Shown here: positions 2,746 through 44,758 of the stretch, piece by piece
How the letters are laid out: the number at the start of each line of letters is the position of its first letter
Position numbering within the stretch: the stretch's first letter is position 1
Assembly (NCBI GenBank): GCA_031385045.1
Contig: JANNBC010000007.1
Span: 64,001-128,000, forward strand
DNA length: 64,000 nt
Reading direction: 5' to 3'
From: a bacterium
GTDB taxonomy: Bacteria; Bdellovibrionota_C; UBA2361; CALJRW01
The notes under the pieces: generated by a model
Databases searched by the model: none
What the model saw: only the letters and a program-made list of their open reading frames with translations
What the model was told of the DNA's origin: nothing
Program-made: the position numbers and the translations under genes

Positions 2746-5700
2746 TCATGGCTTAACCACCCTTTCAGCAGTCCAAGAGTAGCCTATTTTCTGATCTCTA
2801 AATTGATTTTGACTGTCGGCAATCATTCCTCCATTTTGAGCACTAATTAGTGCGTTGGAAACAATTAAAATATCTCCTGCTTTAACAGCAAAATTTAGAG
2901 CGATGTCACCACTTGGATCAACCTTAGACCCACCGAGTAGCGGAAATGATTTAAGCCTTGTGACAAACTCTCCACTTGGCATCAATATTTTTTCCTCAAC
3001 TATAGACATGCCGGCAATCCTGCCATTTCTTGCAAAGATTGAAAGATAGCCATTATTAGTAGGATCAACCTTTGATACCCACTTCCAAAGTCCCTGAATC
3101 GACTTCGTCTCAGCAGTAGAATTATTACTAATTTCATTTTTTAGCGGCACATTACTAGCTGATCCAATCACTTTATTTTGATCATCAGTCTTGGAGTCTT
3201 TACTAGATGTTTTTTGCAATCTCTGAATTTCTCTAAGTGCATCACCTTCATTTAGATAACTTCCAGAGTACCAATCAACAGTTCTTCCAGTAACCTCCTG
3301 ACCATCTTTGAAAAGAATAAATCCATTATTTGCGTAAAGATCTTTTACATCATCTTCAAAATCAAAGTTTACTTTGATTGATTTTAATCCATAGGTGCGA
3401 GCATCAATAACTTCACTGTCATCACTGACAGCATTAGCATTTTCATCAAACCAGAGCGAAATTGGGGTTAGCTCCTCTCCTTCTAAGTACCCATTATTAT
3501 TTTTATCTAAACTACCTAAAGCTTCATATCCATTTGCCCATGGTGCTTTAGTTTTAAGATTTCCGCCAAATGTAAAGTTACCAAACAACATCGATCCATC
3601 CTTAATTTGACCTGACTTCTTAGGATCAAATACTAAAAGCGGCCTGTTAGCATTTGCTTTCCACACAACCCATTCTTTTTCTTTAGCTGGGTTAAGAGAG
3701 AATTTTTTTGGAACAAAAAACGAAGTTAAATCTTCATTGAGAATTAAAGAAATAGGCGATAAGGCCGCAGTAATATCAACTTCTCCACAGACACCAAGCT
3801 CCTGCAGATTAACATCTTTATTACTCACTACATTGCAATCCTTATCTAGGTAGTATCGATTGATACCTTGATTAGACATCTGAGTGGTCATTGCACTATA
3901 TGCTCTTTCGAAAGCTAGATCCCAGCCCCAAGTACAAGGCCGAGTTACATCAACAGAGGTAGTACCATCTGCATTATACACCATTCTCAATTCACAATCT
4001 GGATTAATAAATGGATCTGAGATTCTGCTCCCATAGGTATAAATAAATGCCTCATAATTTGATGCCATTTCACGGTAGGTTGTAGGACCTCCTGCCCAAG
4101 CACTATCTAAAAATGCAGGAATGCTAAATCCAGTTATTTGTTGAACTAATTGATAATACTTTAGATCATCCGCTACATTACCATAAACTTGTTTTGAGAA
4201 GGTCATTCCATAGTAATCAGTTGACGATCTCACGACGTTTGGATTTAATGAATCTTGTGGAGAGTTGTGATCATACAGCTCTTTTTGATAAAGATTGTCA
4301 TTCAAACCTTCAGAGCCGATTAGTTGGCTAACACAAGAAATCCGACCTTCCATTTGTGATTTCCAAAGCTGATATTCCGGAATATCATCGCATGTTATTC
4401 CATTCTGGATAATTGAATTATTTTTAACGCAATTTTGAGCAAGGACATTCATTCCATAAAGAGAACCATTGTCTTTATAAGAAATATCACTTTGATCCGA
4501 TTGATAACCTAATTTAAATTTCCAATAATTAATTAATACACCTTGAAAGTTAATCTCTGTTAATTCACAGCTCTTAATCTGGCATCTAAATGTGCAATTC
4601 TCTGGATCTCCAGCAAAATCGCATTGTTCGCCACCATTAATAATTCCATCTCCACAGTAGGTACAAGCAGCTCCATATGTTCTGCAATTAAGTGGATCTT
4701 GTAGAGATTTATCTAGAGCGGTAGTCCCGAAAGGACCTTTATAAGCGAAGTCACAGGTCTCTGGAGCTTCAATAATGCCATTACCACATCGAGGACCACC
4801 AGTCCCAACACAAAACGAAGCGTAGTCAGAACTTTCAACGCTAGCTCCACCAACGGTAGATGTACCCCTTACAACTACATCATTACGATGCGGTCCAGCT
4901 GGTAACATAAAAGCACCAGCATTATAAATCCAAACTTCCCCTTGCTCTAAAATTCCATTGCGATTGGAATCGCCACTTGGAGAATAAGCTAGCGGATCGG
5001 ATGCTGTAAACCTATAGGAGTTACCAAGGACAGCATCAGTCAGAACAAGATTGGAGACAGCAGGAGACCCTGGCTTAAGCTTCACTTCATAACTAAAAGC
5101 TGCATATTGATCCGTTGTGATAAAATTTGTGATCAAACTATTTGTTCTATCACAGTTAGTAATATCTCTTCTCACTGGCTCCACAGTATTGGTATTGTTA
5201 GATGTAACCTTTTTAATAACTATAATATCTGATGTACTGGTATCAACAATTAAGCAAGTTGAATTACAATAAGCAGTCCCAGCTACATTGGAAGGCATTT
5301 TTGAACCATCACATTGCTCACTTCCATTAATAATACCATCACCGCAATAAGGTTCTAGTTCACACCAAGAATTACATGTAGCCCCTTTAGGGTGTGGCTG
5401 GATACCTGGAATATTATCAAAGTCTCCTCCATCACAAGCTTCCCCAGATTCTCTAATTCCATTACCACAAAAACCAATTTCTAAATCACAAGATGGTGTA
5501 CAAACTTCGTTATTAGTGGAGCTCTGAACCCCACTTGCCAAACCAAAATCTCGATTATCACAATACTCAGGACTTTCTCTAAGACCATTACCGCACCCTA
5601 ATGGTATTAATCGGCAATTTGCTGAACAGATCACTCCAGCAGCAGTACCAGCTGGAACTACCGTACCATCACACTCTTCGTAACCATTAATTATTCCATC

Positions 5701-8700
5701 TCCGCAGACTGGTGCAATCTTACAAGACCAATCACAAATTGATCCATCGGTAGTTTTTTGAACTCCTGGATCTAAACTAAAATCTAAGGCATCACAGACT
5801 TCTGTGCCTTCTCTGATACTATTACCACAATAAGTATAGTAAATATCGCAGACATCCGTGCAGGAGTCTCCAGAGGTGCTAGGTTGCACCCCTTGTAACG
5901 TAGAGAAATCATTGCCATCACAGGACTCACCATTCTCAGACTCCATCAAGCCATTACCACAGATAATTGGAACAATTTTACATTCTGAACAAGTGGAAGT
6001 AGACGGTGTGCCTACAGGTATTACTCCACCATCACATTCTTCTCCTGGCTCAATAATATTATTGCCACAGATACCTGGGCATTGACCTACCTTCTTAACA
6101 ACTGTCACGCTTGGACCAGAATCAATTACGCAAAAGGATGAATTGTCAGTCGTTGGAGCGACAACTGAATTGTCAATATTTTTGGCTGTCACATTAACAG
6201 TATTACTATGTCCACCTGTAGCCAGAGTTGTATTTAATAATTGATAAATCCAAACTTCGCCAAACTCCAAGATATTATTCCCATTATCACCACTTACATA
6301 AACTGGCGTACCAATTTTATTATCAGAAAGGACTAAATCTTTAATTGGATTAGTGTTGCCGTCTTTTAATTTAACTTCAAATCGAAAATTTACTTTTTCG
6401 GATCTGGTAATAAAGAAGTCGCTAGTACTTTGAACGTTCGCACAATTTAGTATCGAATGTTTACGTTGCAGGTAATTACTTTCAGTACTTTTAGAAACTA
6501 GTTTTCGCACCACCGCTTCGCCTTTGCCGGTAACACAAACACCAACGGAACTAGTAGCAACTACACTACTACCAGCAGAGTCAGTCCCAAGTACTGTTGC
6601 TGTATTAAGCAGAGCTCCAAGGTTACTAGCAGTAAACGAAATTGTTGGGGTGTAAGTACGAGAAGAATTTGGTAAGATTGTAAATGCTGGGGATGTTGGT
6701 AATAAATGCCCTCCCGCTCCAAAAAGCATCGTGTCATTAATCTGAGTAATTGTTACTGGTAAGCCCCCATCATTAAAAATCTCAAAGGAATAATTAACTG
6801 TAGCAGACTGATGAACAATTTTATTATTAGTAACTTGTTTAAGGATATTAGTAATATCACAATCAGCATTGCTAGTGACATTAGTGACGATATTATCATT
6901 AACAAATGTTTTACTTTCTGAAAGTGCTCGCTTAACTACCCGAATCCCAGATTTATAAGTAAGCTTACAACCGAAATTAGGAGTATTGTTAGTAATCTCA
7001 TCATTAATTGAAGTGCAACCATTAATTGAAGTATTCTCTAATTGCTTTTGAGCTAAAGTTTTACTTGCGCCAATAGTTCCAAAGTCATTTCCATCGCATT
7101 GTTCCGTAGCATGATCTACAACTCCATTTCCGCAACCAATCGTGGTAAATTCAGTTTTAACTGGTAGCGAAGATGCAAAACCATTAGAGACTCCAACTTG
7201 GGCAGTACTCGAATGAAGTCCAAGATTATCAAATGGAATAAATTTAAAATCATTGACCGAGAAAGTAACCGTTTGCCCTGGAGCTAAAGGAGCTCTTGGT
7301 AAAGAAGTCGGTGCTTTTGTTAAGTCAGGCCAGGAACTTCCACTGGCAATAATGGCATCAACTACCGAAATAAGATCTAATGGGCTAGGTCCTGTATTTT
7401 GAATACTATATTCAACTAGCACCACAGCCTGAAGTTTACCACCACTAATGATAGTTGGTTTAGGTTGATAGTCTCTTATATTAATTGTACCTTTAACTAC
7501 ATTCTCCCCAAGCAAGATCGCACTACTTGCAGCTGGGAGAGAGAAATCTCTTTGCGTACTACTAATACTAGTCCCAGAATTTTTAATAGTCTTAGTTACG
7601 CGAACAGTTTCTAAGTAATTTAAGTTACAAGTATTAGAACAGCTCTCAACATTTGCTGGCTTACCAGCAAGACCAAAGTCTAAACCATCACAGGCTTCAC
7701 TTGTTTCTTTAAATCCATCCCCGCAACCTGTAACACAATATCCAACCGTATCAGAGGCCTCAACGTTTACACCATTTAAGTCTTCCCCTTCAACCTTAGC
7801 TAGGTTTCTAACTAAACCAAGAGTGCTGGCAAGATAAGGAATAGCAGGTGACGGAGTATATGTCCTAGATTGTCCAGCCGGAATGGAAATTGCTGGATTA
7901 ATTGCAAATGAATTCAAACCAAGTTGTGCATCTGTGATGCGATCAACGGTCACTGGCAAACCTCCAGTATTTGTAATCACAAAACTATAATTCACATTGG
8001 TATTTCGAGTAACAACTTTCTTATTGGTTATTTGAGTTTGAATGTTTGTACCCTGACATTGAATTGCAGAGCTTACGACTTTGGGATCGCCAGTAATATC
8101 TTCGATTGTTCCGGTAGAGCTAGTGGCAATTTTATTTAACGTGATGAAAGCATCGTAAGTATACTTACAACTTGCATTACATCCTGTGGCTAGACCAGGA
8201 GCAGAACCCATGTTCGCACCATCGCATTGCTCGGGGACAGTTGCATTAATATCAACAAAACCATCACCACAACCTGTGACACAGACTCCAACAGAATCAC
8301 TCGCACTTACAGCAGTGTTACTTGTGTCAGTTCCATAAATCGTTCCTGAATTTCTAAGTAATCCTAAACTATTTGCAGGGTAAGGATTACTTGCAAAGGC
8401 GGGAATATATGTATAGCTTAGCCCCGGGGCAATGGAGACATTACCAGGAATGATTGCATTATTTAGTCCAAGTAGCGGATCATCAATCCTATCTAAGCGG
8501 ACAGCTCTGCCTCCGGTATTAGTAATAATAAATTGATAACTAACTGAGGAGGATTGTTTAATTACCTTACTATTAGTAATTTGAGTCTGAATATTAGACC
8601 CCTGACATTGATTAACTGTAGTCACATCAGTAGCAGCACTTGTATCTTCAAAAGTCTTACCGCTAACAATCGCCTGCTTAACTAGAGAAATCCCTGAGTT

Positions 8701-9939
8701 ATAGGTATACTGACAACTAGCATTACAACCTGTTGCTAAACCAGGAGTTGTTCCCATATTCGCACCATCACATTGTTCGGGTACTGTTGCTGCAGTGTCA
8801 ATAAATCCGTCGCCACAACCTGTAACACAAAACTCAGCTTGCTCAGTATCGCTAACGCCAAGTGGTGGAAGCGCCGCATTATCATTAATAGTGACATCAT
8901 CATGATGAAGTCCTTGAGTAAATCCACCAGGGAGTGAATGGGTAACAGTGAAACTTGCCCCAACATCTAAATCAAATAATGGTGATGAATAAGAAATTGC
9001 TGGATCGGTAATCCTTAAATTTGTTAACTTAACAGTCCCTGTATTTGTAGCTTTGAAACGAAACTCAACAGAGGAATTATTGCGGACATGCTTTTCCGTG
9101 GTAGTTGTTGTAATCGCATTACACGGAGTCGTCACCTTTGATTGCGTAGTCCAATCAACCCCTGAAGGGATACTTCGAAATTCTTTTGTAATAACTAAGC
9201 CAGGGTTTGTTAAGCGACACTGGGTATTACAACCAGCTTGATTATTTCCATTTCCATTGGCAGCAGTTCGATCACACTCCTCGCCATTATTCGGTGAGAA
9301 CACATTATCATTGCAGCGCTCAACCTTACAAGTCGGCGTACATTTTAGAAAATATTCAGCGCCAACATTTAATGATCCATAATCATTAATATCGCATTGC
9401 TCGGGAACTCCATAAGCAACATTATTAATTAAGCCATCACCGCAGTATTCAATTTTACAAGTTGCCGTATTACAGCGCCCATGACCCACATTCTGAGCTG
9501 GTGTTGGAAAATTATTTTGGAAATCAGCACCATCACATTCTTCGCTAGGATTATTAGCTACTGTATCTCCGCAATATGTACAGTTACTAGTGCAATCACC
9601 TTCAGCAGTTGAACTTCCAGGTGGATCACAAGTTTCGCCAAGAAGCTTCGTAACGATTCCATCACTACAAAATCCACAGATTAAGCATTCACATCCAGCA
9701 CATCCGCATATCGTATCATCACGAACACTAATTGGAGTCTGACCATCGGGACACATCGCATGACCCGCATAAGTTTCTGGAGATGCTTCAATAATTTGTG
9801 GGGCGGGAAGTGATAATGGAGCTTGTTGGATTGCTTGTTCTGGGTTGCTAGGCTGTGCAAATAGAATATTTTCCGGATAAAGTTGGAAAATCCCTGTTAA
9901 AACAGTGATAAAAAGAAAATATCTAAAAAATATCCACAT
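2746..9939 (-). CDS. Giant secreted surface protein (2397 aa): myxobacterial-type Cys-rich (DUF4215-like) repeats, about 7 DUF11/DUF7507-like Ig domains and a FrpC-like Ca2+-binding self-processing module
   Basis: Signal peptide; about 17 CG(D/N)G-like..E.CD..C...C repeats; repeated VxK...(Y/F)xFxxTNTG...D...N domains; near the C-terminus SPISL...LLVFD...GSMLFG...NGYEALGSLDKNNNG...LWFDENANAVSDDSEV. Confidence 0.85.
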   Translation of the reverse strand: MWIFFRYFLFITVLTGIFQLYPENILFAQPSNPEQAIQQAPLSLPAPQIIEASPETYAGHAMCPDGQTPISVRDDTICGCAGCECLICGFCSDGIVTKLLGETCDPPGSSTAEGDCTSNCTYCGDTVANNPSEECDGADFQNNFPTPAQNVGHGRCNTATCKIEYCGDGLINNVAYGVPEQCDINDYGSLNVGAEYFLKCTPTCKVERCNDNVFSPNNGEECDRTAANGNGNNQAGCNTQCRLTNPGLVITKEFRSIPSGVDWTTQSKVTTPCNAITTTTTEKHVRNNSSVEFRFKATNTGTVKLTNLRITDPAISYSSPLFDLDVGASFTVTHSLPGGFTQGLHHDDVTINDNAALPPLGVSDTEQAEFCVTGCGDGFIDTAATVPEQCDGANMGTTPGLATGCNASCQYTYNSGISLVKQAIVSGKTFEDTSAATDVTTVNQCQGSNIQTQITNSKVIKQSSSVSYQFIITNTGGRAVRLDRIDDPLLGLNNAIIPGNVSIAPGLSYTYIPAFASNPYPANSLGLLRNSGTIYGTDTSNTAVSASDSVGVCVTGCGDGFVDINATVPEQCDGANMGSAPGLATGCNASCKYTYDAFITLNKIATSSTGTIEDITGDPKVVSSAIQCQGTNIQTQITNKKVVTRNTNVNYSFVITNTGGLPVTVDRITDAQLGLNSFAINPAISIPAGQSRTYTPSPAIPYLASTLGLVRNLAKVEGEDLNGVNVEASDTVGYCVTGCGDGFKETSEACDGLDFGLAGKPANVESCSNTCNLNYLETVRVTKTIKNSGTSISSTQRDFSLPAASSAILLGENVVKGTINIRDYQPKPTIISGGKLQAVVLVEYSIQNTGPSPLDLISVVDAIIASGSSWPDLTKAPTSLPRAPLAPGQTVTFSVNDFKFIPFDNLGLHSSTAQVGVSNGFASSLPVKTEFTTIGCGNGVVDHATEQCDGNDFGTIGASKTLAQKQLENTSINGCTSINDEITNNTPNFGCKLTYKSGIRVVKRALSESKTFVNDNIVTNVTSNADCDITNILKQVTNNKIVHQSATVNYSFEIFNDGGLPVTITQINDTMLFGAGGHLLPTSPAFTILPNSSRTYTPTISFTASNLGALLNTATVLGTDSAGSSVVATSSVGVCVTGKGEAVVRKLVSKSTESNYLQRKHSILNCANVQSTSDFFITRSEKVNFRFEVKLKDGNTNPIKDLVLSDNKIGTPVYVSGDNGNNILEFGEVWIYQLLNTTLATGGHSNTVNVTAKNIDNSVVAPTTDNSSFCVIDSGPSVTVVKKVGQCPGICGNNIIEPGEECDGGVIPVGTPSTSTCSECKIVPIICGNGLMESENGESCDGNDFSTLQGVQPSTSGDSCTDVCDIYYTYCGNSIREGTEVCDALDFSLDPGVQKTTDGSICDWSCKIAPVCGDGIINGYEECDGTVVPAGTAAGVICSANCRLIPLGCGNGLRESPEYCDNRDFGLASGVQSSTNNEVCTPSCDLEIGFCGNGIRESGEACDGGDFDNIPGIQPHPKGATCNSWCELEPYCGDGIINGSEQCDGSKMPSNVAGTAYCNSTCLIVDTSTSDIIVIKKVTSNNTNTVEPVRRDITNCDRTNSLITNFITTDQYAAFSYEVKLKPGSPAVSNLVLTDAVLGNSYRFTASDPLAYSPSGDSNRNGILEQGEVWIYNAGAFMLPAGPHRNDVVVRGTSTVGGASVESSDYASFCVGTGGPRCGNGIIEAPETCDFAYKGPFGTTALDKSLQDPLNCRTYGAACTYCGDGIINGGEQCDFAGDPENCTFRCQIKSCELTEINFQGVLINYWKFKLGYQSDQSDISYKDNGSLYGMNVLAQNCVKNNSIIQNGITCDDIPEYQLWKSQMEGRISCVSQLIGSEGLNDNLYQKELYDHNSPQDSLNPNVVRSSTDYYGMTFSKQVYGNVADDLKYYQLVQQITGFSIPAFLDSAWAGGPTTYREMASNYEAFIYTYGSRISDPFINPDCELRMVYNADGTTSVDVTRPCTWGWDLAFERAYSAMTTQMSNQGINRYYLDKDCNVVSNKDVNLQELGVCGEVDITAALSPISLILNEDLTSFFVPKKFSLNPAKEKEWVVWKANANRPLLVFDPKKSGQIKDGSMLFGNFTFGGNLKTKAPWANGYEALGSLDKNNNGYLEGEELTPISLWFDENANAVSDDSEVIDARTYGLKSIKVNFDFEDDVKDLYANNGFILFKDGQEVTGRTVDWYSGSYLNEGDALREIQRLQKTSSKDSKTDDQNKVIGSASNVPLKNEISNNSTAETKSIQGLWKWVSKVDPTNNGYLSIFARNGRIAGMSIVEEKILMPSGEFVTRLKSFPLLGGSKVDPSGDIALNFAVKAGDILIVSNALISAQNGGMIADSQNQFRDQKIGYSWTAERVVKP
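5250..6075 (-). repeat. Block of seven consecutive Cys-rich repeats in A-B-C-A-B-C-A order within the giant protein
   Basis: CGNNII/CGNGLME/CGNSIRE/CGDGIIN/CGNGLRE/CGNGIRE/CGDGIIN units; boundaries approximate. Confidence 0.7.
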
Positions 9940-16696: not shown

Positions 16697-16795
16697 GAAG
16701 TGACCCTAGGGTCGCGCGTTCTTCAATCCTTATTCTAAATGCATTGAAGCTATGAAAAACAAATATACTAAAACCTCATGGGTTTTGGTATATAT
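16697..16795. repeat. Degenerate hairpin elements related to the 44.3-44.7 kb repeat, between convergent genes
   Basis: GAAGTGACCCTAGGGTCGC (16697-16715) and palindrome ATATACTAAAACC-tcatg-GGTTTTGGTATAT (16763-16793). Confidence 0.6.
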
Positions 16796-16868: not shown

Positions 16869-17390
16869 TTAAGGACTAGGAGGAGTAGCTGGGTATATAC
16901 AAATCTCTACAGCAGGCATTGGATATCCCGTTTGAATCACGCCTGTAACAGAAGAAAACCGGTAGGTGTGAAAATAAGTCTGAGCTCTGGCTGCCCGAAG
17001 CGCCGAAGGAGCTGTGCGATATGTACCTTTATTATTATAGGTCGTAATAAAATAAACCCCGGCGGTTGAACTACAAGACACTAAACGCACATTTTCAGTA
17101 TGTGTGTATCCTGGGATATCACCACCATAATTGTGCGTAGTTAGGTCAGTATCGTACATAAAAGAAAAAATACTTTGTTGAGTTGAATCAGCAAACCTCG
17201 CATTTATCCCCGTACGAGCATTATATAGAGATGTTATTGCAACTAAATCATTAGCATTGCGTCGATATTCTTGATACTGTGAGACAGCAAGGCCTGCCAT
17301 AATTGAGGTGATCGCAACTGTCACTAGAAGTTCAACAAGACTAAATCCTTTCATATGTCGACTAAATTCGTCTGATCGATAATTTTTCAT
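16869..17390 (-). CDS. Type IV pilin/pseudopilin-like protein
   Basis: Class III signal KG|FSLVELLVTVAITSIMAGLAV with E+5; start may be 17390 or 17354. Confidence 0.85.
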   Translation of the reverse strand: MKNYRSDEFSRHMKGFSLVELLVTVAITSIMAGLAVSQYQEYRRNANDLVAITSLYNARTGINARFADSTQQSIFSFMYDTDLTTHNYGGDIPGYTHTENVRLVSCSSTAGVYFITTYNNKGTYRTAPSALRAARAQTYFHTYRFSSVTGVIQTGYPMPAVEICIYPATPPSP

Positions 17391-17637
17391 TAGAAAAAGA
17401 AGGGAATTTTCCAAGAAATATACCTTCTTACCGATACTGATTGATCACATTACCAAAAACGTTGTGCAGTTTACATATAACGCTAATGCTAAGATTAAAT
17501 CATACCTTAAGATGTATGAAAAACCATTGAGAAACATCTTAAGTTCTATTTATAATTTATTGATTAACCTTCCAAAGCTTACTTCAGAACAAGTTCGCTA
17601 ATAACAGATTATTGAAATGAATCTGTTTATTTGAAAT

Positions 17638-20246: not shown

Positions 20247-21116
20247 TTAAGCAGCGTCTTCTACTGCTTCAGCCGTTGCTTCTTTAGCTGCCAAACAGAC
20301 AGTATTATCAGAAGCTAAATGATAAACATCTAATTCATCACCAAAGCGCTGAAAACCATAACGTACGGCTCCACCATTATCTCGTAACAAGTCACGACAA
20401 GCCTTGTCTTGATCTGAGAACCAAAGTTCTTGGTACTTTGATAACAATTCAGTATCATCTAACAATTCACGATCAATCATTGCCAAGCAACGAGTATCAA
20501 TCATTACTTTTCCAACAGAGGTTGGAGCATTAGCAATTATCTCTTCAAAATCAACTTCATCATGAGAGGAATCATGAATCACGATTCGACAAGAATAAGG
20601 GTTTCTAAGAATTCGATAATTTCCCGGGCTTAGCTCTATAACAACACCACCAAACTTTTTAATTACTTCATTCTTTTCTGTTGGATCTGAATCAATTAAG
20701 TCCAAAAGTGCTCGATGTAATTGTGGATTAGCTAACATAAACTGATCAATGATCACCATATGTCCACTTTCAATAGCAATTCTTTCTCGCAAGTTACCGC
20801 TGTTATTATCAGATCGACCAAAACGACCTCGGCCGCCTCCGCCACCTTGACGCCGACCACCGCCACCGCCACCGCGCCAGCTTCCGCCACCGCCGCTTCC
20901 ACCGCGACCACCACCAAATCTGCGACCGCCAGCACCTTGTCCACGACCGCCGCCTTCGCTGCGACCACTCTCACTCCGGCTACCTTCTCCACGGCCACCC
21001 TCTCCGCGACCTCCACCATTGCTACCGCCACCACTTCTTTGACGACCGTATCGTCCTCCACCATTATTGCTTCCACCGCTTCCGCGAGAATCTGAATTTC
21101 TCATTGCGTTCTCCAA
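20247..21116 (-). CDS. Hypothetical protein with ~100-aa Gly/Arg-rich (RGG) disordered N-terminus and globular C-terminal domain
   Basis: GGRG/GGGR repeats; C-terminal domain with IAIESGHMVIID and VMIDTRCLAMID internal repeat. Confidence 0.8.
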   Translation of the reverse strand: MENAMRNSDSRGSGGSNNGGGRYGRQRSGGGSNGGGRGEGGRGEGSRSESGRSEGGGRGQGAGGRRFGGGRGGSGGGGSWRGGGGGGRRQGGGGGRGRFGRSDNNSGNLRERIAIESGHMVIIDQFMLANPQLHRALLDLIDSDPTEKNEVIKKFGGVVIELSPGNYRILRNPYSCRIVIHDSSHDEVDFEEIIANAPTSVGKVMIDTRCLAMIDRELLDDTELLSKYQELWFSDQDKACRDLLRDNGGAVRYGFQRFGDELDVYHLASDNTVCLAAKEATAEAVEDAA

Positions 21117-21652: not shown

Positions 21653-22264
21653 TTATTTGATATTACTAGATATTTTATATTCACAATGTTCACGAACAAG
21701 GCACTTTTGGCACTTTCTCTCTTCTGGAGTTGGCTTAACTGGAAAATCTTCATCTAGAATCTGCCTCATTTCCATTAAATGTCGATCTAACCACTGTTGT
21801 TTTTTCTGGGTATTTAGAATCTTAACACTACGAGCCTTTTTGCCTAGAATTAGATAACCATAAGGTGGCTTCTTACCCTCAAGCTCCTCAATCAATCTCA
21901 TGCTCACTAACAGTTCAACCACAAAACGATCTCTAATCTTATTAGCCAGGGGCTTACGTTCTACGGGAATAATATAGCCCCCCTCAACTAATAGGGCATC
22001 AGGTCTAGCACTAAGCAATTGACGTTCAGAAATATATTCTTTTGTTTCCTTAAAAAAACTACTGGGAGAAAGTACTGAATCAATCTTTAAATTTACACCA
22101 GAAGTTTTTCTTTTTTTCTGAGCAATTGTCGAGAAAGCATCAAGTACAATCACCAGAACTACCAGCAGAATGAGTAGCCAAAATACAAGAGAGGTCGTGT
22201 TGGAAAGTTGCTCGAAGAGAGAAGCAAGTTCACTTGCTAATTGACTTAAATATTCTTTCAACAT
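21653..22264 (-). CDS. Cas4-like PD-(D/E)xK nuclease, C-terminal part, with N-terminal TM helix
   Basis: RPDALL...PVERK motifs; C-terminal KCQKCLVREHC (CxxC-x5-C); TM LVFWLLILLVVLVIVL; lacks the first Fe-S Cys. Confidence 0.8.
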   Translation of the reverse strand: MLKEYLSQLASELASLFEQLSNTTSLVFWLLILLVVLVIVLDAFSTIAQKKRKTSGVNLKIDSVLSPSSFFKETKEYISERQLLSARPDALLVEGGYIIPVERKPLANKIRDRFVVELLVSMRLIEELEGKKPPYGYLILGKKARSVKILNTQKKQQWLDRHLMEMRQILDEDFPVKPTPEERKCQKCLVREHCEYKISSNIK

Positions 22265-22280
22265 TTATAAACACAAAAAA

Positions 22281-22544
22281 TTAGTGTATCTGCGTGAACA
22301 AATAAACAATAATTAAAAAGAAAATCATGAAAATAATTAAGTTAGTAGCCCAAGTTAAATAACGTGCCGCATCAAAATCAGCCAACCAACTCTTCATAAT
22401 CTCCTGACGTTCTGGCTCCGATTTTTGATCTGGCGGCATCACTTGTTTACGATAGAGCAAATTCCAGCTTTCAGGACAATGCAGATAACTAGCAATATCC
22501 TTTGCAGTGATAATAATTTTACCCTCTTTACTTAAATGGCCCAT
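22281..22544 (-). CDS. Small membrane protein carrying the Cas4 N-terminal Cys motif
   Basis: ITAKDIASYLHCPESWNL matches the Cas4/AddB N-terminal pattern; C-terminal TM helix. Confidence 0.75.
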   Translation of the reverse strand: MGHLSKEGKIIITAKDIASYLHCPESWNLLYRKQVMPPDQKSEPERQEIMKSWLADFDAARYLTWATNLIIFMIFFLIIVYLFTQIH

Positions 22545-22696
22545 CTGCTTTTATAAATTAAATGGAGAGTGACTTAGTCTAGAAATTAGTAACATTTGAA
22601 ATCTGAGCGCACCCTTCTGAAATTATGAGTACGCATTTTCAACTATTATATGAATCAACAAGTGAAACTTGCAATAAGCTTAGTAAAGATTAGAAC

Positions 22697-23176
22697 TTAT
22701 TTCTTACTAACAATTTTTTGTAAAATTTCGTTTAATTTAGATCCTGTAATTAAACTTTGTCGGGAATTCGTGCTTAACTCATAGACCGATCTTAAGTCTG
22801 GCGCAGTTAAAATTTCATCGTAACGACTATCACAAATTGGAATATGGGCTGTCTCGATAATATACTGAGCCTCAGGTGATTGATTATTAGTTATCTTCCA
22901 AAAAGCATATTTAGCTGTTGAAGAATAAAATCGGCAACTTAATACAAAAGAATTCATCTCTGTAGTTTCAATCGCAACAATTAAATCACTGTCTGCTTTC
23001 AAACTAAAGTTGAATTTAAGGGCTTCTAACCATGCTTTTTTAGCACGGTAAGCCGATAGCTCATCCACGTAATTTCCATGGATCGTATCAGTATCTGGAT
23101 CAAAACAAACCCCTTCGAAATAAGGAATTTCTTTAATGTGTGGTAACTGCTTTGTTTGGATTTGAACTGAATTCAT
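22697..23176 (-). CDS. Hypothetical protein
   Basis: 159-aa ORF, AAGG RBS, sigma28-like promoter upstream. Confidence 0.7.
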   Translation of the reverse strand: MNSVQIQTKQLPHIKEIPYFEGVCFDPDTDTIHGNYVDELSAYRAKKAWLEALKFNFSLKADSDLIVAIETTEMNSFVLSCRFYSSTAKYAFWKITNNQSPEAQYIIETAHIPICDSRYDEILTAPDLRSVYELSTNSRQSLITGSKLNEILQKIVSKK

Positions 23177-23515: not shown

Positions 23516-24583
23516 TTAATAATTTTTAGTAGTTACGGGAAGGCTCATCTTTAAATTTAACCAACTGACATCAAGCCCTGGACCAAAAGCTATTAAGGTT
23601 AACTCTTCCGAGGTATCACGTTCGTTCTTTAAAAACTCTTGCAAACAAAAAAATATTGTTGCTGATGACATATTGCCGAATTTTTTTAATACCGAATAAC
23701 TTGCCTCTAAATCTGATAATTCTAAGCCTTCAGCGACAGCCTTTAAGATTGCTTTCCCACCAGGATGTACAACAATGTTTTTCTTACGATAAAAACTGCT
23801 AAAGGCTGACTGTTTAAGAATTTCTTTAATATAATTCGGAAGCCGAGGGGAGAGTCCCATTAGCCACCCTGACGGAGTAATATTCCAAGATAAATATTCT
23901 GTCGCCTCCGAAAATGTCTTTGTCCCAACCTGAGAAATTTGTAAGTGACTTAGATTTTCATCTTGACTATTTCTTAGGGCAATAAAGGCACAACCATCGC
24001 TAAACAAGGCATTACTAATCTGAATTTCAGGATCAAGAGTATTCTGATAATGAAGCGAACAAGCTTCCACACAAATGACCAAAACAATTTTTTCAGTGAT
24101 TAGCTGACAAAGTCCTGCAGCACTATGCAGTCCAACAACGCCGCCATGACAACCCATAAAGCCAAGATGCCAGTGAATACAAGAATCAAGGGCTAGATGG
24201 CTTACTATTTTTGTATCAAGTGTCGGGTTTGTTAGTCCTGTGCACGAAACTGTAATCACACCTCCAATTTCATGAGGATTAATCTGATTAGTTAAAATAA
24301 AATGATCTAAATTTTTTAGAATCTCCGGCAAGACCACACCAACATAATGGTTATTTCTCTCTACCGTCCCGGGGATTTTATTTAAATAAAATTCTTTCCA
24401 ATCTGATAAGTAGGTATATCTTTCCTCCACAGCTGTCTGTCTAATCATGCGGCTATGTCCCAGAGTCCAATTCGTAACATTAGCTTCTTGAAATCCAAGA
24501 TACTCATTTTGCAATACATGATTAGGAGCTGGATAAACTCCGATACATAGAATACCTACTGGATTATTTTTAAGATCAGTCAT
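23516..24583 (-). CDS. Type III polyketide synthase
   Basis: Catalytic triad MGCHGG (Cys), VHPGG (His), GNMSS (Asn); LFSDG; AFGPG. Confidence 0.95.
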   Translation of the reverse strand: MTDLKNNPVGILCIGVYPAPNHVLQNEYLGFQEANVTNWTLGHSRMIRQTAVEERYTYLSDWKEFYLNKIPGTVERNNHYVGVVLPEILKNLDHFILTNQINPHEIGGVITVSCTGLTNPTLDTKIVSHLALDSCIHWHLGFMGCHGGVVGLHSAAGLCQLITEKIVLVICVEACSLHYQNTLDPEIQISNALFSDGCAFIALRNSQDENLSHLQISQVGTKTFSEATEYLSWNITPSGWLMGLSPRLPNYIKEILKQSAFSSFYRKKNIVVHPGGKAILKAVAEGLELSDLEASYSVLKKFGNMSSATIFFCLQEFLKNERDTSEELTLIAFGPGLDVSWLNLKMSLPVTTKNY

Positions 24584-24592
24584 TAATAATTA

Positions 24593-25672
24593 TTACCATA
24601 ACTTAGAAGCTAGTGGAGCGATATAAGGGATTAAGGGAAATAAAAATTTTCTTTTTATAGAACTCTCAATAATCCAAGTGATCATTTGACAACGTGCCCA
24701 TTGTCTTTTTTGTAATATTCTAATTTCTTTTTTCCAAAGCTTAGTGCTGATGTCAGAAATTTCGCGTCGATCTTGAAAGTTCAATGTAATCAGCTCTGCT
24801 AATCTCTCTGCAGTTTGAATTGCGAAATACATTCCTTCGCCTGTAAATGGCTCGGGATAACCCAAGGCGTCACCACAAAGAAAAACTTTTCCCTGAGCTG
24901 GCAGTCGCTTACGATATAAAGTTTCTGTCGCTGACTTTTCGTGAAGTTCTTCTAGTAAAAAATATCTTTTAAGAAAATCAGAAGTGTGAAGTTTTTTACC
25001 ACGTAGATAAGAAGCGATATGAAAGTAAGGCTCCTCCCCTGCAACTCTCACAACACCATGGTAACCAAAATTATCAAGAAGAAAACGGACCTCTCCGCAT
25101 GGAAGGCTATCTAACCCATGTGGATCACCGGCAATTTTTTTTAGGTACCCTTGAAATCCAAAGCCGTTCTTCTCTAACCGTTCCTCTGGCCATTCAGGCA
25201 GTGACTTTGTGGCAATTCCACCACAGTCAATAATAAGATCAAAGATTTGCTCCTGGCCATTACAGAGAAGAAGACCTGCTACTGAATCAATAATTTTTGC
25301 CTTCTTGTTAATTAGAGTCACTCCCTGTTGCACGGCGATGGTTCTAATGGCGTTATCAAGTATTGACCGATCGATCCACCTTCCATGATTATGCTTAAAT
25401 GAAATAGTACTTTCGACGGAAACGAGTGATATTGTATTAATTGGAGTTCCCGGAATTATGACAGAACTTAATCCATGTTTAACTAAAATCTGGACTGCCT
25501 CTTTATGGAGACATCCACCACATACCTTACCAAGTCTTAATACTTCTGGAAGAGATTTTTTTTCAAATAAATAGATGTTTGAGAAGCCTTTAGTACTTAG
25601 TAAGTATGATAAGAAACTTCCACATATTCCTGCGCCAATAATCGCAATCTTGGGGCTTATATTGTTTATCAC
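24593..25672 (-). CDS. FAD-dependent oxidoreductase/monooxygenase (geranylgeranyl reductase-like fold)
   Basis: IIGAGICG, KVCGGCL, GDALGYPEPFTGEGM. Confidence 0.85.
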   Translation of the reverse strand: MINNISPKIAIIGAGICGSFLSYLLSTKGFSNIYLFEKKSLPEVLRLGKVCGGCLHKEAVQILVKHGLSSVIIPGTPINTISLVSVESTISFKHNHGRWIDRSILDNAIRTIAVQQGVTLINKKAKIIDSVAGLLLCNGQEQIFDLIIDCGGIATKSLPEWPEERLEKNGFGFQGYLKKIAGDPHGLDSLPCGEVRFLLDNFGYHGVVRVAGEEPYFHIASYLRGKKLHTSDFLKRYFLLEELHEKSATETLYRKRLPAQGKVFLCGDALGYPEPFTGEGMYFAIQTAERLAELITLNFQDRREISDISTKLWKKEIRILQKRQWARCQMITWIIESSIKRKFLFPLIPYIAPLASKLW

Positions 25673-26379
25673 AAGATAGACTCTAAGAGTATTCGTTCAG
25701 GGAATACTTTACTAACTTGATAACTAGATTCGATAGCTTGTCTCTCCCATTCTTGATGATTGTAGGAGCGATAAACAGAAACTCTTGCGTCATGATGAAC
25801 AACTTTGCTTCTTGTAATTACTTTAGGAAATAAATTAGCTAATAATAATCCTTTTTTAGTTCGTAAAAGATCTTCGTGTCTTACAGCCAACACTGCCTTC
25901 CTTTTAGTTAAATGAAGGAATGGTAAAATTTCAGTAGGATCTAAATGATGTAAAACTAAATTTGTATTGATTAATGAATAGTTTCTTTCAACTTCTTCCA
26001 ACCTTTCTGAGGAATAATTAATTTGAGATTCATTATTGTATGATTCTGCAATCGAAATTAAAGTTTTATTAAGATCAATTCCGTAAAATTTAATATTTAA
26101 GTTATTAATTTTAGCAAAATTATGTAAGTATCTTAATAGACCACCCCCACCACAGCCAATATCTGCAAAAGAAAACTCTTCGCTTAATTTATGATTTAAT
26201 TTTTTATATTGTACTTTAAGCCAGTTAGCTGTTCTATAAAAGTTACCACTCAAATAATTAATTCTATTTAATGTAATTTCTACAGCTGATAATTCTTGCA
26301 ACGAAAGTCCTTTTTGATCCATTAGTTCTTGCAAGTAAGGTCGCTGCTCTAAAAGCTTGGGTATTTTAGTTATTTTCAC
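25669..26379 (-). CDS. SAM-dependent methyltransferase
   Basis: ELMD, DIGCGGG, LVLHH, HDARVSV motifs; GTG start with AGGAG RBS. Confidence 0.9.
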   Translation of the reverse strand: MKITKIPKLLEQRPYLQELMDQKGLSLQELSAVEITLNRINYLSGNFYRTANWLKVQYKKLNHKLSEEFSFADIGCGGGGLLRYLHNFAKINNLNIKFYGIDLNKTLISIAESYNNESQINYSSERLEEVERNYSLINTNLVLHHLDPTEILPFLHLTKRKAVLAVRHEDLLRTKKGLLLANLFPKVITRSKVVHHDARVSVYRSYNHQEWERQAIESSYQVSKVFPERILLESIL

Positions 26380-44310: not shown

Positions 44311-44733
44311 TATACTAAAACCCATCGTGTTTTCTAACAGTTTGGAAAAATCTAATAGATTTTTCAATATTTCGGCTTTTAGTATATTTGTCTTCCCCAG
44401 TACTCAGCCTTATAAAATAAGGATGAGTACCTTAGCGACCCCCAAGGGTAGCTTCAAGTGCTTCGCACTTGATATACTAAGCGCCTTTGTATTTTTGGCA
44501 ATTTTGATTGTCGCTTAGTATATACTAAAACCCATCGGGGTTTTCCTAACAGCTTGGAAAAAATCTAATAGATTTTTCAGTGTTTAGGCTTTTAGTATAC
44601 TTGTCTTCCCCAGTACTCAGCCTTATAAAATAAGGATGAGTACCTTTGCGACCCCCTAGGGTCGCTTCAAGTGCTTCGCACTTGATATACTAAGCGCCTT
44701 TGTATTTTTGGCAATTTTGATTGTCGCTTAGTA
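44311..44733. repeat. Two tandem copies (210 and 213 bp) of a multi-hairpin REP/MITE-like element
   Basis: Units 44311-44520 and 44521-44733, near-identical, each with five stem-loops. Confidence 0.9.
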
Positions 44734-44758
44734 TATTTTTACTAGTAAGTAATAAATA

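Follow-up and report, generated by a model that had tools for sequence, protein, structure and literature searches.

Two adjacent open reading frames on the minus strand of the 64-kb stretch of bacterial DNA analyzed here (the window) raise the question of whether a Cas4-like nuclease can be divided between two membrane proteins and, if so, what such a pair does. A sequence-only reading of the window had described a solo Cas4 whose two membrane-anchored chains share one Fe-S staple and may act on DNA crossing the membrane. The two genes (Table 1) lie in different frames, 16 bp apart; the small gene ends with a TAA at 22281-22283, and a further in-frame TAA (22265-22267) directly precedes the ATG of the large gene at 22264. 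The small-chain motif ITAKDIASYLHCPESW contains C23. When coordinates and translations were rechecked, both ORFs, their motifs, stops, and frames came out as that reading had given them. Our best explanation, to which we assign a probability of roughly 0.45, is an Fe-S-stapled heterodimer on the cytoplasmic face of the membrane that acts on incoming single-stranded DNA. That the two chains form a membrane complex is very likely, an estimate that stays the same under a transfer, defense, housekeeping, or noncatalytic role.

Table 1. Features of the gene pair and of its upstream neighbor, in window positions
Feature	Position	Strand	Remark
Small chain, 87 aa	22281..22544	-	N-terminal part of the Cas4 fold (first strand, helices), the first Fe-S Cys, predicted membrane helix
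Large chain, 203 aa	21653..22264	-	Predicted membrane helix, PD-(D/E)xK core, three C-terminal Cys
Cys23, predicted first Fe-S ligand	22476..22478	-	Small chain; invariant in 39/39 small chains and 76/76 systems
Met50, at the position of the family's GxxxH metal-site His	22395..22397	-	Small chain
Predicted membrane helix, small-chain residues 69-87	22284..22340	-	Mean hydropathy 2.47
16-bp intergenic gap ending in the in-frame TAA before the large gene's ATG	22265..22280	-	Corresponds to the outside loop of fused relatives
Predicted membrane helix, large-chain residues 26-44, followed by a basic patch	22133..22189	-	Mean hydropathy 3.14
Catalytic core D89, E102, K104, intact	21953..22000	-	Large chain
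Altered QxxxY motif (E117 ... S121)	21902..21916	-	Large chain; reads ELLVSM at 117-122
C185, C188, C194, predicted remaining Fe-S ligands	21683..21712	-	Invariant in 64/64 and 76/76
159-aa gene of no known family	22697..23176	-	Upstream, same strand; syntenic neighbor, membership of the system not implied

Only residues 82-194 of the large chain match PF01930, with a score over the Pfam cutoff (27.2 versus 22.7 bits), and the chain scores under the TIGR00372 equivalog cutoff (42.4 versus 65 bits). The small chain has no family match in Pfam, NCBIfam, or PADLOC. This large chain is the single PF01930 match in the window's genome (95% complete), in which neither cas1 nor cas2 was found, and no CRISPR-like array lies within the window. 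The sequence-only reading had likewise seen no array, cas1, or cas2 in the window. A crude repeat scan of the genome gave one three-copy match with a 54-bp period, near the end of contig C17.

To what extent is the split real? A contig from a second study covers positions 22041-22588, junction included, with no differences and no gaps, and in G001, a genome of the same genus, the two genes are split likewise, 10 bp apart. Among 49 split pairs, frame offsets of 0, 1, and 2 occurred in 10, 11, and 28, and all three stop codons were used, which excludes a conserved frameshift or read-through. Between the window's pair and that of G001, pS was 0.79 and 0.76 (saturated) and pN was 0.165 and 0.152 for the two genes; judged by such comparisons, purifying selection acts on both. 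The view of the split as genuine was therefore upheld by the independent contig, G001, the frame offsets, and selection. A broken gene, or a single protein made by frameshifting or read-through, is already largely refuted and now highly improbable: it could appeal to the single-gene fused forms that make up 27 of 76 systems and to the lack of a clear ribosome-binding motif before the large gene's ATG, but the varied offsets and stop codons, the selection on both genes, the confirmed junction, and the intact unlinked halves described below all speak against it. Promoter and terminator scans gave no excess over shuffled sequences (7 versus 9.6 and 2 versus 1.2, respectively).

Next, we looked at how widely the pair is conserved. 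The large chain had 159 close homologues among 557 candidates, and the few named ones came from metagenome-assembled genomes of Bdellovibrionales, Oligoflexia, or Deltaproteobacteria. In a search of relatives, it matched 55 of 61 genomes, and a profile of fused forms found the system in 110 of the 124 genomes of the phylum (67 of the 73 good ones). Family f28 was an exception, with the system in 0 of 6 genomes and, with a broader profile, in 0 of 5. In all five other genomes tested that had no large half, the small half was missing too, although four of these were <90% complete. Within the window's order, 50 loci comprised 39 pairs, 10 fused forms (two of them reread by hand from the sequence), and 1 locus cut by a contig end. 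The gene-pair conservation survey that the sequence-only reading had called for was run on 84 loci, from which 8 incomplete ones were dropped; the 76 complete systems consisted of 49 pairs and 27 fused forms, with all four cysteines in every one. In a quick tree of these 76 systems, split and fused states were interspersed across several branches.

The fused forms indicate where the fold has been cut. Their order is the first Cys motif, the GxxxH helix, a membrane helix, a loop, a second membrane helix, the nuclease core, and the three remaining cysteines, with a loop of 6 to 54 residues (median, 23; 27 fused forms). By sequence, the split falls in the outside loop of a two-helix hydrophobic insertion directly after the GxxxH helix, and the 87-aa and 203-aa genes are halves of one Cas4 fold. 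The sequence-only reading had named reads showing a single fused gene as evidence against a split; fused relatives do exist, and we count them as support for two chains. Named fused members occur in Methermicoccus and Methanofollis, where they are annotated as CRISPR-associated Cas4. No longer fused form of 357 to 2,000 aa was found with P0001 as the query, which is weak evidence. P0259 and P0318, two distant members of 417 and 436 aa, have additional domains at the N terminus or, ahead of the membrane helices, a long soluble insert. Besides the fused, decayed form, one genome carries another split pair (L108, 3062-3798, in G082:C24), which is distant and resembles the plasmid-borne branch. 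Relatives were found neither in 50,697 phage records nor, with the patterns used, in IMG/VR contigs.

In Chloroflexota, the two halves can be far apart. The small gene lies upstream of the large one in 54 of 80 loci. Genomes were searched for a displaced small gene for 23 of the 26 loci that had none nearby, and 21 of the 23 carried one elsewhere, complete through the helix except in one case that ran into Ns. In 20 of these 21 genomes, no large half lies within 1 to 1.5 kb after the displaced gene; the small gene of G126 sits at a contig end and is ambiguous, as it may belong to a linked pair. All 17 mapped cases had their halves on different contigs. The genomes with unlinked halves are mostly Thermoflexales and Roseilinea and so perhaps reflect one event. 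Since the halves are unlinked in 20 genomes and yet both are kept, they likely assemble in trans. Small-ORF homologues away from the nuclease gene had been listed by the sequence-only reading as an argument against the pair; the Chloroflexota cases are of this kind, and we count them in favor of a two-chain protein.

Structure prediction gave the same picture of the soluble parts. Modeled with a 4Fe-4S ligand, the window's pair reached an ipSAE of 0.83, whereas the best control stayed at 0.00; at least 80% of contacts were shared between runs, and the partner pLDDT was at least 74. Of the 157 solved complexes used for calibration, 116 reached this ipSAE mark, as did 2 of the 215 mismatched pairs, counts that apply only roughly here; part of the pair's score reflects a resemblance to solved Cas4 that lets split-gene halves pass. 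The interface is confidently predicted between the soluble parts and includes C23, which faces large-chain residues 178-179. Both membrane helices are outside it, so the paired transmembrane helices that had been expected were not recovered. The proposed heterodimer with a shared four-cysteine staple is supported by the ipSAE, by the cysteines of the 76 systems, and by the retention of unlinked halves, and the membrane tether is supported by a predicted helix in each chain. The architecture now stands on firmer ground than before, as the small chain adds the metal-site His in most relatives and natural fusions show the cut.

Fold comparisons extended this to relatives. The model of a fused relative, L027 (pLDDT, 80.7), matched Cas4 7mi4 best (Z, 17.0; root mean square deviation, 3.3; 186 aligned residues) and 8d3l with a Z of 16.2; Dna2, Cas4, and AdnAB were at the top of the Foldseek matches listed. 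The best PDB match of a profile of Chloroflexota small chains (A6) was residues 5-63 of Cas4 8d3l (E = 0.008), in an alignment that pairs the first Cys and the GxxxH His, and A6 matched the small chains of the window's family at an HHalign probability of 98.7. Lys and Arg are commoner after than before the large-chain helix in 48 of 48 pairs (one skipped), and the window's helix has 0 in the 15 residues before and 4 after; the nuclease core is therefore predicted to be cytoplasmic. Fused forms made up 54 of 145 distant representatives, with 2, 4, and 8 predicted helices in 36, 8, and 5 of them, respectively. These even counts (49 of 54) imply that both halves are kept on one side. From hydropathy and charge, both halves are predicted to face the cytoplasm at the inner membrane.

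The small chain may contribute more than a cysteine. According to PMC8610317, the GxxxH His binds metal in Sso0001 and PcaCas4 and activity depends critically on QxxxY; PMC12501428 agrees on the role of His62. If the family His is a metal ligand, the small chain likely completes the metal site. As it brings an Fe-S Cys and, in most relatives, this His, neither chain would be complete alone. In 50 of 76 systems, the small chain has an intact GxxxH and the large chain an intact QxxxY together with D, E, and K. The His was kept in 51 of the 76, and QxxxY was intact in 50 of these, the remaining one reading Q-x-x-x-H; the His was lost in the other 25, and QxxxY was broken in all 25. The His was also invariant in 20 of 20 Chloroflexota small chains. 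Two lineages account for the 25 decayed systems: the genus of the window and a clade of 23 members, just 9 of which have the D-[DE]-x-K core. On the quick tree, joint decay across the chains thus comes down to two independent losses, a number too small for statistics.

The window's copy belongs to the first of these lineages. In its order, the GxxxH His is present in 37 of 39 small chains and lost in G000 and G001, the window's genus; relatives of this genus from metagenomes are decayed in the same way. An absent GxxxH and a QxxxY reading ELLVSM, as reported from sequence alone, are thus correct for this copy, but they do not describe the family, in which both motifs are mostly intact. Because His and QxxxY were lost together in this genus, this copy probably cuts weakly or not at all, and its substitutions (M50, E117, and S121) make reduced activity fairly probable. 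E117 could in principle supply a new ligand. The genus has kept D89, E102, K104, the cysteines, and the anchors under purifying selection.

To identify what the system may act on, we turned to its neighborhoods. The 159-aa gene upstream of the window's pair does not reach any Pfam cutoff and has a low pN of 0.069 against G001, and its family occurs in 43 of 84 clustered phylum loci, all of the window's order; other orders have different neighbors. Several other features of the window are recorded here in their own right. A 289-aa protein (20247-21116, minus strand) has a long Gly/Arg-rich N terminus and, at the C terminus, a conserved domain without a Pfam family; its homologues occur in 13 loci, often near the Cas4-like pair. 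Genes for a type III polyketide synthase, an FAD-dependent oxidoreductase, and a methyltransferase follow each other at 23516-26379 (minus strand), likely a small biosynthetic cluster. The many imperfect repeats at 4637-9556, with a Cys-Gly-Asp-Gly-like periodicity (a 546-bp spacing among them), probably encode a large repetitive surface protein. A tandem duplication of ~213 bp (95% identity) at 44311-44736 has a partial copy at 16764-16786, and its first 23 bases recur near a pilin-like gene (16869-17414).

Genes for DNA uptake are linked to the system in places. In 4 of 4 genomes of family f8, comEC lies directly downstream on the same strand, and in G017 it is one gene away; among 110 genomes, the linkage consists of this one family plus G017. 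In the window's genome, comEC, dprA, and a comF-like gene all lie away from the pair. Across the phylum, 117 of 124 genomes carry comEC, as do all 6 of f28, the family without the system, in which dprA and an AddAB-like gene are retained too. The competence genes therefore do not need the system, and profiling against these three genes was dropped as a test of role, as f28 keeps them all and nothing is discriminated. The ComEC proteins of the phylum are short, with open frames of ~460 to 630 aa (G000:C5, 9226-10839; L048, 2757-4304), and one that was scanned had the Competence domain only. The pair was also considered as a substitute for the nuclease domain that short ComEC (515 to 537 aa) lacks, but this is not supported, given the predicted cytoplasmic topology and the presence of ComEC without the pair in f28. 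To our knowledge, archaeal members cannot depend on a ComEC; the comEC search matched 0 of 4 archaeal controls.

Other neighbors involve single-stranded nucleic acid or conjugation. In the 80 Chloroflexota loci, the neighbors include translin-like (39), SSB (22), NAD kinase (14), and RecN-like (10) genes. The translin-like gene, the commonest, has a Pfam score below the cutoff and points as much to RNA. In L179 (214-1161) and 38 other Chloroflexota loci, it immediately precedes the small gene, and SSB is often found beyond it. A distant sub-branch has a TrwC/MobF relaxase domain in 8 of 80 metagenome loci, 7 of them among the 37 long loci; the pair also neighbors a DNA methylase and a MobF relaxase on two plasmids of Planctomycetes. 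The relaxase-linked loci are interrelated (55 to 99% identity) and lie amid methylases and defense genes in mixed orientation. This metagenome set has 47 clear pairs among its 80 loci, whereas 24 are without a small gene, 12 of them with >450 bp upstream. An anti-defense reading based on the plasmid leading region was abandoned: of 10 pairs, 9 lie 5' of the relaxase, but 7 are oriented away from it. The main text of PMC11541004 does not mention Cas4.

Three Bacillus subtilis plasmids (NZ_OX419568, CP120602, and NZ_OX419581) also match. On NZ_OX419568 (L222, 6661-7399), an intact split pair of 81 and 162 aa with all catalytic motifs lies near hfq, thermonuclease, and toprim genes and a DinG-like helicase gene two genes upstream. 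An equation of these plasmids with pLS20 was discarded, as the records do not say so and only three match; a literature search gave no paper pairing pLS20 with Cas4. Taken together, the neighborhoods weakly suggest a common thread of DNA transfer and single-stranded nucleic acid, and on this slender basis we tentatively favor incoming DNA as the substrate, at somewhat under even odds.

We propose the following mechanism. The two chains would insert in the inner membrane, and their cytoplasmic parts would fold together around one Fe-S cluster. The complex would engage DNA ends near the membrane and, in relatives with the full site, trim single-stranded ends emerging from membrane channels. The anchor would keep the nuclease off the chromosome and next to sites of DNA entry, such as the competence channel or conjugation, and the window's copy would bind DNA with reduced or no cutting. 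In a broader version, the family would be a widespread class of membrane gatekeepers, with staple and metal site completed only when two membrane proteins meet, even from unlinked genes; single-stranded DNA would be processed at entry (transformation and conjugation), plasmids would carry the system beside their relaxase to this end, and a binding-only receptor would have evolved at least twice, this genus included. As the site would be completed only when the chains meet, assembly itself could switch the nuclease on. In its entirety, we regard this version as rather doubtful.

Of the other roles considered, a membrane-tethered nuclease might cut injected phage or plasmid DNA, working like SNIPE. 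The predicted topology, a single-pass anchor with a cytoplasmic nuclease, is that given for SNIPE in passages of PMC13190303, copies on plasmids and other elements lie beside genes for DNA methylases, YhcG, ABC-three-component systems, and ArdC, and relatives match the PADLOC DruK models weakly (E values of 1e-4 to 7e-9, below their Cas4 matches). P0001 itself, however, has no DruK match. Moreover, defense genes tend to be patchy, while this system is nearly universal (110 of 124 genomes), mostly single copy, and set in stable housekeeping surroundings, and the 23-member clade keeps it with the catalytic core in only 9 members; a defense role therefore seems unlikely to us. The same vertical, core-like distribution would suit a membrane-bound nuclease that repairs or turns over cellular DNA or RNA in the vicinity of the membrane, as would the translin-like (39/80), SSB, and RecN-like neighbors in Chloroflexota, the helicase gene on the B. 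subtilis plasmid, and the presence of Dna2 and AdnAB among the closest folds. But the window's genome has a separate AddAB-like gene, neighbors differ between phyla, and a membrane anchor is without obvious use in repair, which leaves the housekeeping role unlikely as well.

Lastly, the system could be noncatalytic throughout, an Fe-S or nucleic acid sensor or scaffold at the membrane for which cutting is incidental. Cysteines and anchors persist in all 76 systems while catalytic residues decay in 25, and the metagenomic relatives of the window's genus have decayed alike. Against this, the full site is present in 50 of the 76 phylum systems and in plasmid copies, and the small-chain His is kept in all 20 Chloroflexota chains, which makes the idea decidedly improbable. 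We retain the heterodimer acting on incoming single-stranded DNA as our preferred reading.

A split or membrane-anchored Cas4 is not described in the literature searched, outside which most subscription journals lie; that literature also yielded no experiment on a family member, and the two-chain, membrane-anchored build is apparently an undescribed, conserved variant of the Cas4 family. New here are the unlinked halves, the His from the small chain, the joint catalytic decay that includes this copy, and the plasmid-borne pairs. What solo Cas4 genes do is treated as an open question in PMC5704561 and PMC12501428. A large part of solo Cas4 would be membrane-anchored, often two-chain proteins and not soluble Cas4; in annotations, a pair appears as "CRISPR-associated Cas4" next to an overlooked hypothetical gene, and the annotated gene expressed alone would yield only half of the enzyme. 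For the Cas4 fold, it is unusual that two gene products share one Fe-S cluster and one metal site, and the intact pair on B. subtilis plasmids makes the question testable in a standard laboratory host.

Among known systems, CRISPR-associated Cas4 (PF01930 and TIGR00372; 7mi4, 8d3l, 4ic1, and 4r5q) has the same fold, one-plus-three cysteine staple, and PD-(D/E)xK core; its GxxxH and QxxxY are present in most relatives but absent from the window's copy. Cas4 is a single soluble polypeptide, whereas the window's system has two genes with a predicted membrane helix each, a membrane hairpin inside the fold, and no cas1, cas2, or array, and the four cysteines that define Cas4 are assembled only across two chains (C23 plus C185, C188, and C194). 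Solo-Cas4 (PMC5704561 and, for Methanosarcina mazei, PMC12501428) is likewise found outside CRISPR loci and mostly vertically inherited. The main text of Hudaiberdiev et al. 2017 (PMC5704561) places all four cysteines of every member in one module and uses neither "split" nor "transmembrane"; "membrane" is likewise missing from the M. mazei text consulted (PMC12501428). A monophyletic solo-Cas4 reported in many Chloroflexi, in passages of PMC5704561 that do not mention membranes, may be the large half of the window's family. AddB, AdnAB, Dna2, and Exo5 share the nuclease fold and the Fe-S staple; the window's system differs in being without a helicase domain, much smaller, and membrane anchored, with a staple that joins two gene products. 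The PADLOC models of Druantia DruK match relatives weakly, below their own Cas4 scores, and do not match P0001; a literature search for DruK together with Cas4 gave no paper. The closest working analogy is SNIPE, which has an inner-membrane anchor, described in sections of PMC13190303 as keeping the nuclease off host DNA, and a cytoplasmic nuclease, both predicted for the window's pair; SNIPE is a single chain with GIY-YIG and DUF4041, whereas Pfam scans of the pair gave Cas4 and PDDEXK matches only, and the likeness is thus one of arrangement, with no homology seen.
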